From Alphaproteobacteria bacterium (lineage in GTDB: Bacteria > Pseudomonadota > Alphaproteobacteria > SMXP01): a DNA stretch of 64,000 nucleotides. The stretch covers positions 94,838-158,837 of the forward strand of contig JANQPV010000037.1 in the NCBI GenBank assembly GCA_028285305.1, read 5' to 3'. The translations under genes and the position numbers were made by a program. Position 1 is the first letter of the stretch; every line of letters starts with the position of its first letter. Below the pieces are notes generated by a model. The model worked only from the letters and a program-made list of their open reading frames with translations, was not told the origin of the DNA and did not search any database. Shown in pieces: positions 41,985 to 55,070 of this stretch.

Positions 41985-42347
41985 TTAGGCGCCGATTCGC
42001 TGGGCAATTGTGTTGTCGTCGTTCATGATGAGGACAGTCGGCGCATAGTTGCGCGCTTCCTCGGCGGGCAGTTGAGCAAACGTGGTAATGATCACTTGGT
42101 CCCCCGGCTCCGCCAAGCGAGCCGCCGCACCGTTGAGCATAAACTCCTTAGAGCCACGTTCGCCCTCAAGTGCATAGGTCGTCAGACGCGCCCCGTTTGT
42201 AATGTTCCACACATCCACCTGTTCGAAGGGAAGAATGTTTGCCGCGTCGAGCAAATCCCGGTCGATCGCAATTGACCCCTCATAATGCAAATCCGTCATG
42301 GTCAACGTTGCCCGGTGGATCTTCGATTTCATCATCGTCAACAGCAT
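41985..42347 (-). CDS. panD: aspartate 1-decarboxylase
   Basis: [16 protein letters not shown]...GSIAID, with the processing-site region GS conserved. The start is at Met13 of the listed ORF. Confidence 0.88.
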
Positions 42348-42583
42348 GGTGCCCTCACCTTCCGCGAACACGATCGCGCTCAAAATTGAGTTGTCAGGAT
42401 AGGAGCTAGGGGCCGTTCAGGGCGTCATGCCCAGTGCCATACTCGCAAAGTGTTGCGATAGCGTGGCCCAAACCGTCCGACCGAGGTATGACCCGGCACC
42501 AAGAGGAGTGGCAGCTCAAGGCAATACTATAAGCGAACGAGGGGCCAGACTCAAGCAAGGTATCCGCGAAGGGACACGCCAAC

Positions 42584-45118
42584 TTAATTGTCTAAGAAAC
42601 TCCGCAACTTCCGGCTACGAGACGGATGCTTCAACTTCCGAAGGGCCTTCGCCTCGATTTGGCGGATGCGCTCTCGCGTAACCGAAAACTGCTGACCCAC
42701 CTCTTCCAGCGTATGGTCCGTGTTCATGCCGATGCCAAATCGCATGCGAAGCACCCGCTCCTCCCGCGGCGTTAGACTGGCGAGCACCCGCGTGGTCGTT
42801 TCGCGTAAGTTCGACTGGATCGCAGCATCAATGGGGAGCACCGCGTTCTTGTCTTCGATGAAGTCGCCCAGATGGCTGTCTTCCTCGTCGCCAATTGGCG
42901 TTTCGAGGGAGATTGGTTCCTTGGCAATCTTCATCACCTTACGAACTTTCTCAAGCGGCATTGCCAATTTTTCTGCCAGCTCTTCAGGGGTCGGCTCACG
43001 GCCGATTTCATGGAGCATCTGGCGTGAGGTGCGCACGAGTTTGTTGATCGTTTCGATCATATGGACCGGAATGCGGATGGTGCGCGCCTGGTCGGCGATC
43101 GACCGCGTGATCGCTTGGCGGATCCACCAGGTGGCATAGGTTGAAAACTTGTAGCCGCGCCGATACTCGAACTTGTCCACCGCCTTCATCAAGCCGATGT
43201 TGCCCTCTTGAATGAGGTCCAAGAACTGCAGGCCCCGGTTGGTGTATTTTTTGGCGATGGAAATAACGAGGCGCAAATTGGCCTCAACCATCTCCTTCTT
43301 TGCGATCCGGGCTTCCCGCTCACCCTTTTTGACAAGCTCAACGATCCGCCGGAAGTCGCTAATCAAAAGGCCGGTCTCCATGCCGATTTGGGCGATATCT
43401 CCGCGGATATCGAGAATTGCGTCTTCCTCCGACTGGGTAAACGACTGCCAGCCGGCACCCGGGAGCTCAGCTGCGCTCTGGAGCCATTGCGGATCGAGTT
43501 CGGACTCGAAGTAGCGCTCTAGGTACTCGGATCGCGAAACGCCGTGGCCTTCGGCCAGGCGCAACAATTTGCCCTCGAGACGCATCAGAACTTTGTTGAT
43601 GTCGTAGATCTGCTCGACCAGCTGTTCAATCCGCGCATTGTTCAAATGGACGGTCTTCACATGTTCGATAATGTCCGCTTTGAGCTTTTTGTAGCGGCGA
43701 ACCTGACTGGCGCTGAGACTGCCACCGCCGAGAGTCAATTCAATTTGTTGATCCTGCAGTTTGCGGAATTTCTTGTATTCGGCGGCGATTGCATCGAACG
43801 TTTCCATCACTTTCGGCTTGAGCTCAGCCTCCATCGCAGCCAGTGAGAGGTTGTTTTCCGCATCCTCGTCATAATCATCTTCGTCGTTCTCAGGCAGCTC
43901 TTCTCCCGCCTCTTCGGCGGCTTTGCGGCGTTCTTCACGCTTTTGTTCCGCGATTTCACGCTCGCGGCGCGCAATCACTTCCGCCTTGTCTTCCCCATTC
44001 TTCTCAGCTTCAAGAGCTGCCATAGAATGGTCGGGCTGGTTTTCAGGCCCACCGCCAAACGTTGTGTCGAGATCGATAATCTCTCGCAAAAGAATGCGGC
44101 CCTCGGTCAATTCCTCGCGCCAAACCAAAATCGCCTCGAAAGTGAGCGGGCTTTCGCACAAGGCTTGAATCATCGTCTCGCGGCCAGCTTCGATGCGCTT
44201 TGCAATCGCGATTTCACCTTCCCGCGACAACAGTTCCACACTGCCCATTTCACGCAGATACATGCGCACGGGGTCATCCGTTCGGTCAGCAACGGTGGTG
44301 GATTCACTTTTGGTTTTCGTAACGCCCGTCGATTCACGGGTCGTCAGCGCATTGCTATCCGTGGCGAGTTCTTCGGACTCATCGTTCTCCACCACGGAAA
44401 TGCCTTGGTCACTCAGCTGTGACATAAGATCTTCGATCTCTTCCGAACTCACACCGTCTGCCGGCAGAACTTCGTTCAGCTCATCATAGGTAATGTAGCC
44501 GCGGTCTTTTGCCCGCTTCATCATCTTCTTTACCGCCGAATCGCTCAGGTCGAGCAGAGGCCGGTCGCCTGATGTCTCAGACTTACCGCCGGTCGACTTC
44601 TTGCTCTTCGCGGAAGGCGTAGCCGCAGCAGCATTAGCGGCTACCTTTGCTGCCGCATTGGTCGTAGCGCCATTCGCTTCAACCGATGCATTTTCCTCTG
44701 TGAGCTTCGAATTGGCTGCTTTTGCAGTCTTTGTAGCAGCAGACTTTGTTGAAGCCGTCTTGGCCGAAGATTTTGTTTTCTTGGCTTGGGTTTCGGGAGC
44801 GGCCTTAGCTGCCGTCTTTTTGGCGGTGGTAGATTTGGTTGCAGTTGCAGTTTTTCTCGCGGCCGCCTTGGTTGCCGCAGCCCGCGTTTTTGTCCGCGCC
44901 GTTTTCGCCGCAGGTTTTGCTAGCTTTGTTTTCGCAGAAGCGGGTGATTTCGCGGAAGCTGGTTTTCGGCCGGCTGGCTTCGCTTCGGCTTTCGACGCAG
45001 TTGTCTTCTTCGTTGTGGAAGACTTTGTGGCTGCGGATTTCGTTGCCGAAGTTTTGGTTGCCGATTTTCGCGCAGTTGGGCGTTTGGTTTTTGAAGTTGA
45101 TTCTGCTGCTGTTGCCAT
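42584..45118 (-). CDS. rpoD: RNA polymerase sigma factor RpoD (sigma-70) with ~183-aa Lys/Ala/Thr-rich N-terminal extension
   Basis: All sigma-70 regions are present: region 1.1 ([34 protein letters not shown]), regions 2-4, and the C-terminal [17 protein letters not shown]. The first in-frame start upstream of region 1.1 is the ATG at 45118, which has a GAGGGG RBS and an in-frame TGA just upstream. Confidence 0.9.
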
Positions 45119-45283
45119 ATGCTCTACGCCTTGCCCCTCATTGTCCCGTCCAAACCCCTCATCCTATCATTGAAGCTCATTGTCTCTTCAAAACTCACCG
45201 TATCTCTTCAAAAACTCACTGTGCCGTTCAAATATGACTCGCTTCGCGCGGATTTCGCATATACGCGCGAAACAGACCCTCTC

Positions 45284-47197
45284 TCAGTCGTTTTGATCGA
45301 ACTCGTGCTCCCGCCGGTGCTGTTCCGCCTTGAAGCCCAACAAACGCGCAAAATTTTCGTCTGTCGTCTCCTCGGTTAGGTCGTTTTCCAGCGATCGCCG
45401 TTCAGTTTCTGCTTGTTCACTCAATCGCAAACGCAAGCTGTCTTTCCAACCAGACTTCGCGCTCGCAATATCCGTTTCGGGCTTCGCAAAGTCATGTGTA
45501 CTCGAGATCGGTTGCGCAGTCAGCTTTCTCACGATTCGCGAACACCCTTGTTTGACGAGGTGGTCATGCAGGCTCAATCTGTCAAGTGACTCACCCAAAC
45601 CCGCTATCGTTATGATTTCCTTTTGCAGTCTGTCAAGTTGAGGATTCTCAAACGTTAGTCGCTCAAAATCGTCAAAGTGATCATCTAATATCTTGGGATG
45701 GTTGAGAACCGTGAGAACCAGAAGCTCATCTCGTCCACTTGACGGAACGGATGCTTTGGCCAGTGGGCTATTTTTCAATGCCGTCGTTGTTGAGGGCCGC
45801 GAAAACGCAAGATTCCCAGCATACCGTCCTTTCGACCGGTCATGCCCAGACATCATCGGACCCTGGCGCGGACCACGTCCGACGCCGAACTTGGGGGGAC
45901 TTTGGGGTTGAAGGGCTGCTGTTTGCATCGATGCCGCTAGCTTCGCCTTGATCTCGTACGCGTAGTGCTGTTTCACGGTGGAGTCTTTAATGGTGTTTAC
46001 CAATTCTCTTAACGATTGTTGAAAACCGGCGCGTCGATCTGGTGTCGTTAACTCTTTTTTTGCCTGTTCCCGTTGCCAAATCATGTCGACCAATGAGACC
46101 CGATCAGCAAGCATTCGCTGGAGAGCATCAGCCCCGTCGCTCCTCAGCACATCATCGGGATCCTGACCCGATGGCAACAAGCAAAACCAAACCGATTTTC
46201 CCGGTGTCAGTAAGGGCAGAGTTCGGTCGCACACCGCATGAGCAGCCTTAAGACCGGCCTTGTCACCGTCAAAGCAAAGAACCGGTTCATCCGTAATCCG
46301 CCACAGAGCCTGCAAGTGCATTTCGGTCAATGCGGTCCCCAAAGGCGCGACCGCCGTGGCAACACCTGCGTCATGGAATGCAATGACATCCATATACCCT
46401 TCGGCAACGACCAACGGCGTATCGGTATGTCTCTGGTTGGCCGCTTCCCGCGCCTTTTGAAAGTTGTAGAGTGTCTGGCCCTTATCGAACAAAGCGGTCT
46501 TGGGAGAGTTCAAATACTTAGCTTTGTCGTCAGGCGACAGGGCCCTGCCGCCAAAGGCGATGACGCGGCCCCGCCAATCGGTAATGGGAAAGATGATTCT
46601 ATTTCGAAATATACCGTAAGCAGATGAACCATCTTGAGAGTGGTTGGCCAAGCCGGCTTCGATGAGCTGATCCAGACGAAAGCCGCGGGCAGAAAGATAG
46701 GACTCCAACGGACGTAACGATTGAGGTGCAAAGCCTAAGCGAAAATGCTTGATGGTCGTATCTGTCAGGCCCCGAGATACAAGGTAATCCCGCGCATGTT
46801 TCCCCATCGCTCCAGCAAGCTGGCTCTCAAAGAACGTTGCTGCCCCTTCCAATAGATCATAGAGCGAAGCCGCTTGCCGTTGACGCCTTTCGGTCTCCGG
46901 ATCGGGCTTTGGCAACTCAAGACCCGCATCGGCGGCCAAAAGCTCGATCGCCTCGGGAAGCGAAACGCCCTTAAGCAGCATGAGGAAATCGAAGTGGTCC
47001 CCGTGCTCCCCGCTAGAATAACACGTAAAGGTCCCTTTTTGATCATCGACGAAGAACGAGGGGGTCTTTTCGACATTGAAGGGGCTTAGCCCTCTCATCA
47101 ACCGCCCACTCCGCTCCAGTTTGACGTGCGGGGCAACAACGTCGGAAAGACGAAGGCGCGATTTGATCTCTTCGAGGAAAACTCTGGGATACTTCAA
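45284..47197 (-). CDS. dnaG: DNA primase
   Basis: TOPRIM/RNA-polymerase core (EGYMDVIAFHDAG), C-terminal DnaB-binding region and the conserved dnaG-rpoD gene order. The N-terminal zinc-ribbon ligands are mostly substituted. Confidence 0.88.
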   Translation of the reverse strand: MKYPRVFLEEIKSRLRLSDVVAPHVKLERSGRLMRGLSPFNVEKTPSFFVDDQKGTFTCYSSGEHGDHFDFLMLLKGVSLPEAIELLAADAGLELPKPDPETERRQRQAASLYDLLEGAATFFESQLAGAMGKHARDYLVSRGLTDTTIKHFRLGFAPQSLRPLESYLSARGFRLDQLIEAGLANHSQDGSSAYGIFRNRIIFPITDWRGRVIAFGGRALSPDDKAKYLNSPKTALFDKGQTLYNFQKAREAANQRHTDTPLVVAEGYMDVIAFHDAGVATAVAPLGTALTEMHLQALWRITDEPVLCFDGDKAGLKAAHAVCDRTLPLLTPGKSVWFCLLPSGQDPDDVLRSDGADALQRMLADRVSLVDMIWQREQAKKELTTPDRRAGFQQSLRELVNTIKDSTVKQHYAYEIKAKLAASMQTAALQPQSPPKFGVGRGPRQGPMMSGHDRSKGRYAGNLAFSRPSTTTALKNSPLAKASVPSSGRDELLVLTVLNHPKILDDHFDDFERLTFENPQLDRLQKEIITIAGLGESLDRLSLHDHLVKQGCSRIVRKLTAQPISSTHDFAKPETDIASAKSGWKDSLRLRLSEQAETERRSLENDLTEETTDENFARLLGFKAEQHRREHEFDQND

Positions 47198-47214
47198 ACC
47201 CCTCGGCCCTTATT

Positions 47215-47685
47215 CTAGTGACTGGACAACAGCTCTTTCACCACCCCGCTCGCCTTGGCGAAATCCATTTGACCGCTATACTTTTGTTTTAAGGTCCCCA
47301 TACACTTGCCCATATCCTTCAACCCTTGAGCCTGCAATTCCGCAATGACGTCTTTGCACGCTTTTTCGATTTCTTCAGGCATAAGCTGTTGCGGCATGAA
47401 TTCTTCAATGACTTCGATCTCTTGGCGTTCCTGCTCAGCCAAGTCCAGCCGACCCGCTTCTTCGTAAGTTTGGGCTGATTCGCGCCGTTGTTTGACCATT
47501 TTAGACATGATGGACAGAATGTCTTCGTCGGAAACACCCTCTGGTGAGTCAGGCGAGCGCGCAGCGATATCTCTGTCTTTAACCGCCGCCAAAATGAGTC
47601 GCAACGTAGAGACTCGAATTTGGTCCTTGGATTTCAAGGATTGCTTCAAAGACTCATTAATTCGTTCACGCATTGGTGTGCTCAT
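47215..47685 (-). CDS. GatB/YqeY domain-containing protein
   Basis: MSTPMRERINESLKQSLKSKDQIRVSTLRLILAAVKDRDIAARS is typical of YqeY. The start is uncertain (Met7 or Met11 of the listed ORF). Confidence 0.75.
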   Translation of the reverse strand: MSTPMRERINESLKQSLKSKDQIRVSTLRLILAAVKDRDIAARSPDSPEGVSDEDILSIMSKMVKQRRESAQTYEEAGRLDLAEQERQEIEVIEEFMPQQLMPEEIEKACKDVIAELQAQGLKDMGKCMGTLKQKYSGQMDFAKASGVVKELLSSH

Positions 47686-47850
47686 GATCAATCTCTCTAA
47701 CATACCTTCCTTAGATGCGAGGCAACAAACCTGTGAACAAGGCCAGGCGGACGCCTATCATAACAATTCTGGGTGATCACTTCTTGACGGCACTTAAGTG
47801 ATCGCATACCTTCCCGCAACTTTGCGCTCAAGAAGCTCCAGTTCCGTAAA

Positions 47851-49035
47851 TTGACGTTGTATTCAGACGATAAACCTACCGGCGCACTCGCCCTAAGCGA
47901 CGGTACCATTTTCTACGGCCATGGGTTTGGTTACGAAGGTGTAGCCGTCGGCGAAGTCTGTTTCAATACTGCAATCACGGGTTACCAGGAAATACTGACC
48001 GACCCATCATATGCGTCGCAGCTGGTCACGTTCACGTTCCCGCACGTCGGTAATGTGGGTACGAATGATGAAGATGTCGAGTCCTCCACAGTGATGGCGG
48101 AAAAGGCGGCCAGGGGATGCATCGTGCGAACGCCTGTCACGGCTCCCGCAAATTATCGAGCTCAAAACCACTTCGCATCCTGGTTGAAAGAGAGAGGCAT
48201 TGTTGGTTTGTCGGGCGTAGATACGCGTGCTCTGACAAGGTACATCCGGCAACGTGGCATGCCAAAGGGCGCAATGATCCATCGACCCGATGGAGAACTA
48301 GAAATCGAACACCTGCAAGAGCAAGCCAAATCTTGGGCTGGTTTGGAAGGGGCCGACCTCGCCGCCAGCGTTTCAGCACGCGAGAGCTTTGAATCTCAAG
48401 AAGGCATCTGGGATTGGCCTCACGGCTATCGGGCAGAAACATCGGAACGACACGCTCGGATTGTCGCGATCGACTTCGGTGCAAAGAAGTACATCTTGCG
48501 CCTGCTCGCCAAGAGCGGCTTCGAAGTAAAGGTGGTCCCAGCCAGTTCGACGGCTGATGAAATTTTGGCTCTCCAGCCAGATGGAATCTTTTTATCAAAT
48601 GGCCCCGGCGACCCGGCAGCAACGGGAACATATGCCATCGGCGAAGTCCAAAGGTTGATCCAAAGCGGTCTACCCATATTTGGAATTTGTCTCGGCCATC
48701 AATTGTTGGCGCTGGCCTTGGGGGCGAAAACCTCCAAAATGCATCAAGGTCACCATGGCGCCAATCATCCGGTCAAAGATCTAGAGACCGGAAAGGTTGA
48801 GATCGTCTCAATGAACCATGGCTTCACGGTCGATCAAAACACATTGCCTCCGGATGTTGTCGAGACGCATATCTCTCTCTTTGATGGCACCAATTGCGGA
48901 CTGCGCGTCAAGGACAAACCCATATTTTGCGTTCAGTACCATCCCGAAGCGTCACCGGGACCACAGGACAGCTACTACCTGTTCGAGAGGTTTAAAGACG
49001 CCGTTGTCGCGGTAAAAGCCATTCGTCATGCCTAA
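47851..49035 (+). CDS. carA: carbamoyl-phosphate synthase small (glutamine amidotransferase) subunit
   Basis: N-terminal CPSase small-chain domain and a class-I GATase domain ([14 protein letters not shown]). The TTG start follows an in-frame stop. It overlaps the carB start by 8 nt. Confidence 0.9.
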
Positions 49036-53981: not shown

Positions 53982-54053
53982 GGCTGAGCGCGAACTTTAG
54001 TATAGGAAATCCTGCGCGGGTTGCGCAACAATATTACCAAATCAAGTAAGTTT

Positions 54054-55070
54054 ATGACCGAAACGCCACTTCAAACGTTCTGCCCTCGCCCATCGGCCAC
54101 TGGTCAGGACATGTGCTGGGTTATCAGCGATGGACGCCGAGGCATAGAAAACCAGGCGCTCGGTCTCGCCGAGGCCATCGGGCTTCCCTTTGAAATCAAA
54201 CGGGTGCGGCCGAGTTGGCTTTGGCGGATCGCCCCGGCCGAGGCATATCCCCTGCTCAACACACTATGCTTCTCTCAGCCCCTGTTTGCATCTCGGGCAG
54301 ACATGTTTCGACCGCCGTGGCCGCGACTTCTGATCGCAACTGGGCGGTTGAGTTTGCCCTATTCGATCGCAGTCAAAAGGCTTAGCCGCGGCCGAACATT
54401 CACTGTTCAAACGCAAGATCCCCGAGTCTCACCCAAACACTTTAGTCTCGTCGTTCCTCCATACCACGATGGATTGCATGCGGATAATGTCGTCGCGATC
54501 GTTGGAGCGCCGAATCGAGTTCGTCTGCATGCTTTACGCGATGAATCCATCTCGATGTCCCGCCGTTTGGCGCACCTTCCACGGCCCCTTGTCGCCGTCC
54601 TGATCGGCGGATCCAGCAAAGCCCACAAGATGTCAAAAAAGTGGATGAAACGATTTGCGGAGTCCCTGGGTGAGCTTGCCCGACTCAACAAAGTGGGACT
54701 GGCAATCACTCCTTCTCGCCGGACCGGTGAAGAGAATATCTCCATCTTACGGCAAACATTATCAGCAGACGGCGCTTATATCTGGGATGGAGAAGGGAAC
54801 AACCCCTATTTTGGAATGCTCGGATTGGCCGACTATATTGTCGTAACATCAGACTCCACGAACATGGCAACAGATGCAGCCGCAACCGGAAAACCTCTTT
54901 ATGTGGCGCATGTGCCCGGTGGGTCGAGAAAGTTCAGGGCCTTCCATGAAGATTTGACCGCCCGAGGAATCGCGCGTCCGTTCACCGGAGAACTCCAATA
55001 CTGGTCCTACCCGCCCCTAAATGAAACCCAGCGTGTAGCAAATCTTATTCGAGAGAGACTGAACCTATAA
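54054..55070 (+). CDS. ELM1 / DUF1022 family protein (mitochondrial-fission ELM1-like predicted nucleotide-sugar transferase)
   Basis: The conserved N-terminal block CWVISDGRRGIENQALGLAEAIG is typical of the bacterial ELM1 family. The start is uncertain: the track gives TTG 54021, and there are ATGs at 54054 and 54111. Confidence 0.6.
   Translation: MTETPLQTFCPRPSATGQDMCWVISDGRRGIENQALGLAEAIGLPFEIKRVRPSWLWRIAPAEAYPLLNTLCFSQPLFASRADMFRPPWPRLLIATGRLSLPYSIAVKRLSRGRTFTVQTQDPRVSPKHFSLVVPPYHDGLHADNVVAIVGAPNRVRLHALRDESISMSRRLAHLPRPLVAVLIGGSSKAHKMSKKWMKRFAESLGELARLNKVGLAITPSRRTGEENISILRQTLSADGAYIWDGEGNNPYFGMLGLADYIVVTSDSTNMATDAAATGKPLYVAHVPGGSRKFRAFHEDLTARGIARPFTGELQYWSYPPLNETQRVANLIRERLNL

Follow-up and report, generated by a model that had tools for sequence, protein, structure and literature searches.

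Why does the primary sigma factor of an alphaproteobacterium carry a long and strongly basic tail in front of its first folded domain, and what could such a tail do? The question is raised by the rpoD gene on the reverse strand of contig JANQPV010000037.1 (42584..45118, 844 amino acids), numbered here within the window, that is, the entire stretch of 64,000 nucleotides that was analysed. The product was classed as a group-1 housekeeping sigma factor from the open reading frame (ORF) listing, Pfam and NCBIfam. Its N-terminal 185 residues (44564-45118, reverse strand), delimited by a codon and composition scan, contain 54 Ala, 36 Lys, 35 Thr, 23 Ser, 7 Pro and 6 Arg residues and eight acidic ones, giving a net charge of +34 and a pI of 10.97, and the remaining 659 residues have a pI of 5.12. 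In the reading that we favour, the leader that ordinarily precedes region 1.1 has expanded into a disordered polycation of 185 residues that is translated and acts as a non-specific polyanion-binding arm. Taken as a whole, we hold this reading to be evenly balanced between right and wrong.

The identity of the gene is unambiguous. The NCBIfam RpoD equivalog NF004208 (PRK05658) is matched with 908.4 bits, compared with a cut-off of 555, with residues 174-844 aligned to profile positions 5-631 of 631. The six Pfam domains all exceed their gathering thresholds and follow one another in the order region 1.1 (residues 192-259), region 1.2 (282-314), the non-essential region (NCR, 324-578) and regions 2, 3 and 4. 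The best PDB chain, 7ye1_F (RpoD, 652 amino acids), aligns to residues 173-844, and the core is alphaproteobacterial (71% to Parvibaculum). The primase gene dnaG (45284..47197, reverse strand; Pfam Zn_ribbon_DnaG, DNAG_N and Toprim) is located directly upstream, carA and carB are divergent and lie beyond dnaG, and panD is found downstream of rpoD. The order carA-yqeY-dnaG-rpoD is also seen in the relatives L082, which lacks a tail, and L083, which has one. Because of this gene order, shared with relatives, the product is the housekeeping RpoD at its usual dnaG-rpoD locus; an earlier note on this DNA had already taken it for the primary sigma factor. That note had also placed the start of the canonical protein near residue 185, in good agreement with the equivalog match from residue 174 and region 1.1 from residue 192. 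It had described a tail rich in Lys, Ala, Thr and Ser, and the peptide strings that it quoted are indeed present in the translation. Its estimate of about 183 residues needs adjustment: the basic extension is there, and its exact extent is 185 codons. MzaA (NF041931), a protein of the sigma-70 family that belongs to the MZA anti-phage system, was considered as an alternative identity and discarded with a score of 421 bits for a cut-off of 800. The MzaA model aligns to RpoD residues 56-844, part of the tail included, and MzaA models thus also have a long N-terminal region.

The tail consists of two parts, which like region 1.1 are encoded on the reverse strand. Residues 1-137 (44708..45118) form a basic tract rich in Ala, Lys, Thr and Ser, with 36 Lys and Arg, three Asp and Glu and a net charge of +33. 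Residues 138-185 (44564..44707) form a near-neutral spacer (net charge +1) that ends in SETSGD, the ancestral acidic motif preceding region 1.1. Over its full length the tail is 29% Ala, 19% Lys, 31% Thr plus Ser and 4% Pro. In an AlphaFold2 model based on a 66-sequence alignment, residues 1-184 have a predicted local distance difference test score (pLDDT) below 50 and no secondary structure at all, and the tail is predicted to be fully disordered. Region 1.1 (44342..44545; PF03979, 73.7 bits) is folded and acidic, with pLDDT values of 78-88 and helices at residues 194-206, 211-217 and 225-237. The net charge of residues 186-262 is -11, and that of the NCR is -25.

Before a role is considered, it must be asked whether the tail belongs to the protein at all. 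The ATG at 45116..45118 (reverse strand) is in the codon scan the sole canonical start that yields an intact region 1.1. The codons from there up to position 199 include no ATG, GTG or TTG, and the only alternatives are CTG codons at positions 188 and 191. The first internal ATGs encode Met199-Met200 (44519..44524, reverse strand) and lie inside helix 1 of region 1.1, downstream of a conserved 13-residue stretch of this domain; a start at Met199 would cost half of the helix. Upstream, an in-frame TGA-TAG pair (45164..45169, reverse strand; TGA 45169-45167, TAG 45166-45164) closes the frame 15 codons, or 45 nucleotides, before the ATG. The earlier note had reported the in-frame TGA and the lack of any other start, and had concluded that region 1.1 can be translated from a canonical start only together with the tail; the scan bears out all three statements. 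In the six-frame scan of the tail DNA, stops are absent from the rpoD frame and from one antisense frame, and each of the other four has two to seven. The open antisense frame corresponds to an ORF of 190 amino acids at 44601-45173 on the forward strand, rich in Ala, Val and Phe, which is a shadow of the low-complexity codon pattern and not a gene.

Both ends of the tail can be recognized in relatives. The first 12 residues resemble the N-termini of two tail-less relatives, P0004 (MATTTESVPKTK) and P0008 (MAATTESVAKTK), and the N-terminal pattern MAT..ES..KTK together with the SETSGD motif before region 1.1 matches the two ends of the 30-37-residue leaders of the closest relatives. The counterpart of SETSGD in these tail-less relatives is SETPD or QESSD. 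That both ends are homologous to an ordinary leader and share a reading frame speaks against a misplaced start, a frameshift or a chimeric join. It also shows the tail to be an expansion inside the usual leader of 20-35 residues.

We are therefore confident, although short of certain, that the tail is real and translated. It could instead lie outside the mature or main protein, through initiation at Met199, Met200 or one of the two CTG codons or through proteolytic removal. The absence of a good Shine-Dalgarno sequence before the annotated ATG (GAGGGG is found 15 nucleotides and GAG 3 nucleotides upstream) speaks for an internal start, as does the fact that gene callers pick internal starts in some relatives (P0015, P0066/L001). 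Nevertheless, with initiation at Met199 the first, conserved half of helix 1 would be missing, the frame is open for 185 codons where the two other sense frames have two and five stops, the first residues of the protein are homologous to those of orthologues, and dozens of independent genomes contain equivalent open in-frame tails. We consider this explanation very unlikely. An assembly or sequencing artefact, either a chimeric join or a set of compensating frameshifts, is more improbable still. It would fit with the fact that no second assembly of the exact tail was found, that the protein cluster is a singleton and that the metagenome scan gave no close RpoD relative (among the matches listed, region 1.1 is only 47-67% identical). 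It does not fit with the homology of both tail ends in the same frame, with the GC content of the tail (54%, similar to the 54.7% of the window), with the intact synteny or with the same architecture in many unrelated assemblies.

The tail also does not look like the product of recent replication slippage. TRF detects no tandem repeats in the tail DNA, no DNA word of 12 nucleotides or more is repeated, and peptide 4-mers and 5-mers recur no more often than they do in shuffled sequences (p = 0.08 and 0.22, respectively). All four synonymous codons of Ala, Thr and Ser (TCN) are used about evenly. Mixed codons without DNA repeats indicate that the amino-acid composition has been maintained. The tail mRNA is A-rich and poor in U (11%), and its predicted folding does not depart significantly from that of shuffled sequences (z = -1.8). 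An explanation at the RNA level was set aside, given this ordinary fold and the lack of an Rfam family: there are none in 42000-48000, and the whole window yields only one tRNA. No other ORF of the 64 kb window contains a comparable Lys/Ala/Thr tract, and a genome-wide habit of adding such tails thus finds no support there.

Comparison with other RpoD proteins places the tail in a class. Basic N-terminal extensions of 100-350 residues before region 1.1 are present in 49 of the 120 best RpoD homologues, with a mean composition of 27% Ala, 27% Lys, 15% Thr, 7% Pro, 6% Ser and 2% Arg and about +0.27 charges per residue; the other 71 have leaders of 19-53 residues, which are mostly acidic. As the tail itself contributes to the ranking in this search, the proportion is inflated, and estimates independent of the tail were made. 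A search with the core only against 1.84 billion cluster representatives gave basic extensions of 80-370 residues upstream of region 1.1 in about 17 of 150 clusters, one of which has an extension of 319 residues with a net charge of +99. Comparable extensions were seen in 8 of 80 metagenome loci and in one or two of 80 GTDB species loci, among them Devosia sp. 66-22 (221 residues, net charge +40). The view of the earlier note that such a tail is unusual on a primary sigma factor is therefore overstated, all the more so given the mycobacterial sigma-A precedent discussed below.

When the cores are placed on a neighbour-joining tree, the tailed proteins are spread over at least ten clades, with tail-less clades interleaved among them, and by this comparison basic RpoD tails have arisen repeatedly. 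The RpoD of the window is sister to P0002 and P0003 (core identities of 80% and 76%), which have leaders of 30 and 37 residues and no tail. A hidden or frameshifted tail was looked for on the contig of P0002 and not found; the 63-residue ORF upstream of its rpoD is not rich in Lys and Ala. As the nearest relatives lack it, the tail of the window is probably an independent expansion, and in the orthologue comparison that the earlier note had called for, its sequence is specific to the lineage. Inside a tailed clade, divergence is much faster in the tails than in the cores (identities of 56% and 94% in one example), and indels are numerous in the tails, which nevertheless keep their frame, composition and range of lengths. 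The last ten residues before region 1.1 are acidic in both tailed and tail-less homologues (mean charges of -1.8 and -2.8, respectively), and region 1.1 itself is acidic in tailed proteins as well (-12.3 versus -15.5). Judged from these comparisons, the tail of the window belongs to a recurrent class of Lys/Ala/Thr/Pro-rich RpoD N-extensions in which Lys greatly outnumbers Arg and in which composition and charge are kept while sequence and length change quickly through in-frame indels. Within this class it is the richest in Ser and Thr.

Two further observations concern annotation and architecture in the family. In L001 (2818-5046; MAG L.E.AP.14, JACADY010000073.1) the annotated RpoD, P0066 (684 amino acids), begins at an internal Met, and an upstream in-frame ATG would add a 59-residue leader rich in Lys, Ala and Pro (MPTKKKETNKAPTAAAAKKPAKPVAKAAPAPKAASKSKST…). 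The gene of P0015, too, seems to be a tailed one that was called too short. Annotations may thus miss some basic tails, with gene callers sometimes choosing internal starts. The search of representatives also returned three giant RpoD-like proteins, P0130 (1757 amino acids), P0131 (1571) and P0132 (1413), each matched in four to nine separate stretches. P0132 contains several tandem region-1.1-like modules (…PIAV..W…G.IT..EL…PKKK..ARL..I…L..LGI.VVE…). These proteins could be sigma factors with multiple regions 1.1 or mis-assemblies.

The similarity of the window tail to other RpoD tails is slightly above that of shuffled sequences (z between 2.6 and 5.5). Long tblastn matches of the tail in Hoeflea, Hyphomicrobiaceae, Paracoccus, Mesorhizobium and Ruegeria loci proved to be spurious, the rpoD leaders of these loci (L004, L026, L078, L051 and L079) being short and non-basic; for the match in Ancylobacter (L023), a tail is made doubtful only by the leader of 20 residues seen in the locus scan. 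The window tail does not reach the HC2 (PF07382) or Hc1 profiles, although it shares the Lys/Ala-rich, basic and disordered character of these proteins, and the tails of three homologues also stay below the HC2 threshold, with 32-35 bits for a cut-off of 40.

Of the known systems, the one that the tail would most resemble in its mode of action is the basic N-terminal part of the actinobacterial sigma-A N-domain. In mycobacteria this domain is disordered and basic in its N-terminal half, is positioned near beta2 on the outside of the cleft and has an effect on initiation (PMC5511352, PMC11656743); the sequence before region 1.2 comprises 225 residues in Mycobacterium tuberculosis and 163 in M. 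smegmatis (PMC5511352, PMC11656743). In both cases a lineage-specific disordered extension of highly variable length is found on a primary sigma factor, with a basic part followed by an acidic part. The two also differ: the actinobacterial domain replaces the folded region 1.1, whereas the window tail precedes an intact, folded and acidic one. There is no sequence homology, and the basic tract of the window is longer (137 residues versus about 60) and contains more Thr and Ser.

A broader likeness is to Hc1 and HC2 of Chlamydia, AlgP of Pseudomonas, BpH1 of Bordetella, Hlp and Ku of mycobacteria, the N-terminal tail of HU in Deinococcus and PhaF, which are Lys/Ala-rich, very basic and disordered. 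These tails occur on, or act as, nucleic-acid-binding proteins, and they have originated repeatedly and change quickly (PMC3553676). In Ku and Hlp, lysine-rich tails of low complexity influence how the protein binds DNA, and such tails have appeared several times on DNA-binding proteins that are unrelated to one another (PMC3553676). They are mostly proline-rich tandem repeats (PAKKA, KPAA), whereas the window tail has 4% Pro, 31% Thr plus Ser and no repeat arrays, and its host is a sigma factor and not a nucleoid protein. Membership of the AKP/PAKKA tandem-repeat family (AlgP, BpH1, Hlp, Ku) was therefore rejected. The earlier description of the tail as histone-H1-like or AKP-type thus holds for its composition and not for homology or repeat structure.

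A basic disordered domain on the transcription machinery is also known from the myxobacterial CarD, the C-terminus of which is HMGA/H1-like (PMC8156234). According to the part of that article that cites Garcia-Heras 2009, the basic disordered H1-type domain suffices for the DNA-binding role; in the part that cites its reference 98, it can be exchanged for the C-terminal region of histone H1, such that composition and not sequence gives function (PMC8156234). CarD differs from RpoD in that the domain is C-terminal, is located on an accessory factor that binds RNA polymerase (RNAP) and carries AT-hooks in Myxococcus xanthus. The closest architectural parallels are other proteobacterial RpoDs with basic N-extensions, such as those of Devosia sp. 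66-22 and Hyphomicrobiales bacterium 4NK60-0047b (GAA6213089.1), which share the locus and the succession of a basic Lys/Ala/Thr/Pro tract, a short acidic stretch and region 1.1. Their tails cannot be aligned with that of the window, which is less charged and richer in Ser and Thr. Streptomyces HrdB probably carries AKK-type repeats. Full-text literature searches returned no description of basic N-tails on proteobacterial RpoD, an absence that is not proof, and these tails are recurrent and apparently unstudied, yet neither rare nor mechanistically unprecedented.

What could the tail do? In Escherichia coli, region 1.1 of sigma-70 auto-inhibits DNA binding by free sigma and serves as an acidic DNA mimic that gates the downstream DNA channel. 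In the holoenzyme it resides in this channel and is displaced when promoter DNA enters. In our model the tail would be an arm at the N-terminal end of the acidic region 1.1 that binds polyanions without specificity, DNA in the first place and possibly RNA or polyphosphate. As region 1.1 sits in the channel and then leaves it, the arm would project from the channel mouth. There it could raise the non-specific affinity of sigma and of the holoenzyme for DNA and the nucleoid, favouring one-dimensional promoter search and nucleoid retention, and it could contact downstream or flanking DNA after ejection of region 1.1. It could also fold back on region 1.1 and the NCR (-11 and -25), tuning autoinhibition and open-complex formation. 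Tethering to the nucleoid or to polyanions, which the earlier note had suggested, would be plausible. As for nucleic-acid binding being the main activity of the tail, we are slightly more inclined to doubt it than to accept it.

Several observations weigh against this arm model. Besides the poor ribosome-binding site and the single assembly mentioned above, translation of the tail is inferred from sequence only. The tail by itself matches no Pfam family even at E ≤ 10, has no homologue among 5.8 billion proteins at E ≤ 1e-3 and no match in the PDB, a BLASTP comparison with the tail from the nearest tailed clade is negative, and a conserved motif is absent. The G+C content at third codon positions (GC3) is lower in the tail than in the core in three independent tailed rpoD genes, with values of 0.465 versus 0.668 in the window (tail stretch 44564-45118, reverse strand), 0.573 versus 0.654 in L083 (3001-3492) and 0.701 versus 0.894 in L066 (2842-3504), which fits relaxed translational selection or weak constraint. 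The closest relatives manage without a tail, which shows that a sigma factor of this kind can work without one. With +0.18 charges per residue, compared with about +0.27, the tail also stands at the weakly charged end of its class. Finally, removal of the lysine-rich tail of M. smegmatis Ku raised its DNA affinity (PMC3553676), and a basic tail thus need not mean more DNA binding.

Much of this could equally be expected if the tail were a neutral low-complexity expansion, the drifting by-product of an insertion-tolerant leader and perhaps an inert spacer or solubility 'bristle'. The tail-less sister lineages, the fast turnover by substitutions and indels, the lack of a motif or homologue, the relaxed and AT-shifted codon usage in the three genes and a similarity to other tails that barely exceeds that of shuffled sequences all agree with drift. 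What drift explains less well is that the same odd composition, with Lys far in excess of Arg and almost no acidic, aromatic or large hydrophobic residues, recurs in at least ten clades and about 10% of loci at roughly +0.27 charges per residue, and that tails persist at 100-350 residues within clades. The mixed synonymous codons without DNA repeats speak against recent slippage, and 185 extra residues on an abundant essential protein are a real cost. On balance we regard neutrality as unlikely. We would likewise place little weight on the idea that the tail is a protein- or self-interaction module that masks region 1.1 and the NCR, docks an acidic partner, which could be a regulator, a chaperone or an anti-sigma-like factor, or serves as a degradation or polyphosphate handle that sets the level of sigma. 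The +33 tract lies next to region 1.1 and the NCR with their negative charges, region 1.1 remains acidic in tailed homologues, and in M. smegmatis it is through the disordered N-domain of sigma-A that MoaB2 binds, a domain that also influences how stable sigma-A is (PMC11656743). However, the basic first 60 residues of sigma-A are not the part in contact with MoaB2 (PMC11656743), the tails share no conserved linear docking motif, and no candidate partner gene is evident beside rpoD.

The DNA between dnaG and rpoD contains features of its own. Three copies of a 19-nucleotide direct repeat, 39 nucleotides apart, lie in this spacer, the rpoD leader (45137..45233, reverse strand; GTTTGGACGGGACAATGAG, GTTTTGAAGAGACAATGAG and ATTTGAACGGCACAGTGAG); the last copy ends 19 nucleotides before the rpoD ATG, and the repeat occurs nowhere else in the window. 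The copies may form an array of operators or other regulatory sites, or they may belong to the rpoD promoter region; a promoter scan gave no matches on the gene strand. An 11-nucleotide inverted repeat (TTCGCGCGGAT / ATACGCGCGAA) with a 7-nucleotide loop is located at 45243-45271, 13 nucleotides past the dnaG stop. It has no T-run and may be a dnaG-rpoD attenuator or a processing hairpin. The spacer shows no conservation among relatives. A few kilobases from rpoD, and unrelated to the tail, an ORF on the forward strand (54021-55070) matches Mito_fiss_Elm1 (PF06258) over its full length with E = 5e-102.

The finding has a practical side, as gene callers sometimes truncate tailed rpoD genes at internal starts. 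For the biology of the sigma factor, a disordered arm with a charge of +33 on the acidic, channel-gating region 1.1 should alter the encounter of sigma and of the holoenzyme with DNA. Such arms are encoded by about 10% of the sampled alphaproteobacterial-type RpoD genes, and we found no study of them outside Actinobacteria. If they are neutral, they show how far an essential and highly conserved protein tolerates low-complexity growth. If they are functional, then promoter search, association with the nucleoid or the stability of open complexes would be subject to an additional electrostatic influence that varies between lineages. A bolder proposal, which we think distinctly improbable at present, is that polycationic sigma tails are a convergent module of Alphaproteobacteria and other Proteobacteria, with a parallel in Actinobacteria, that lends sigma or the holoenzyme a built-in activity like that of a nucleoid-associated protein. 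Were this true, the module could anchor housekeeping transcription on the chromosome or drive RNAP to cluster or form condensates. It could also hold on to flanking DNA after the ejection of region 1.1 and in this way stabilize open complexes that would otherwise be short-lived. It would then represent a mode of global transcription control that has been missed because the model organisms lack the tail.

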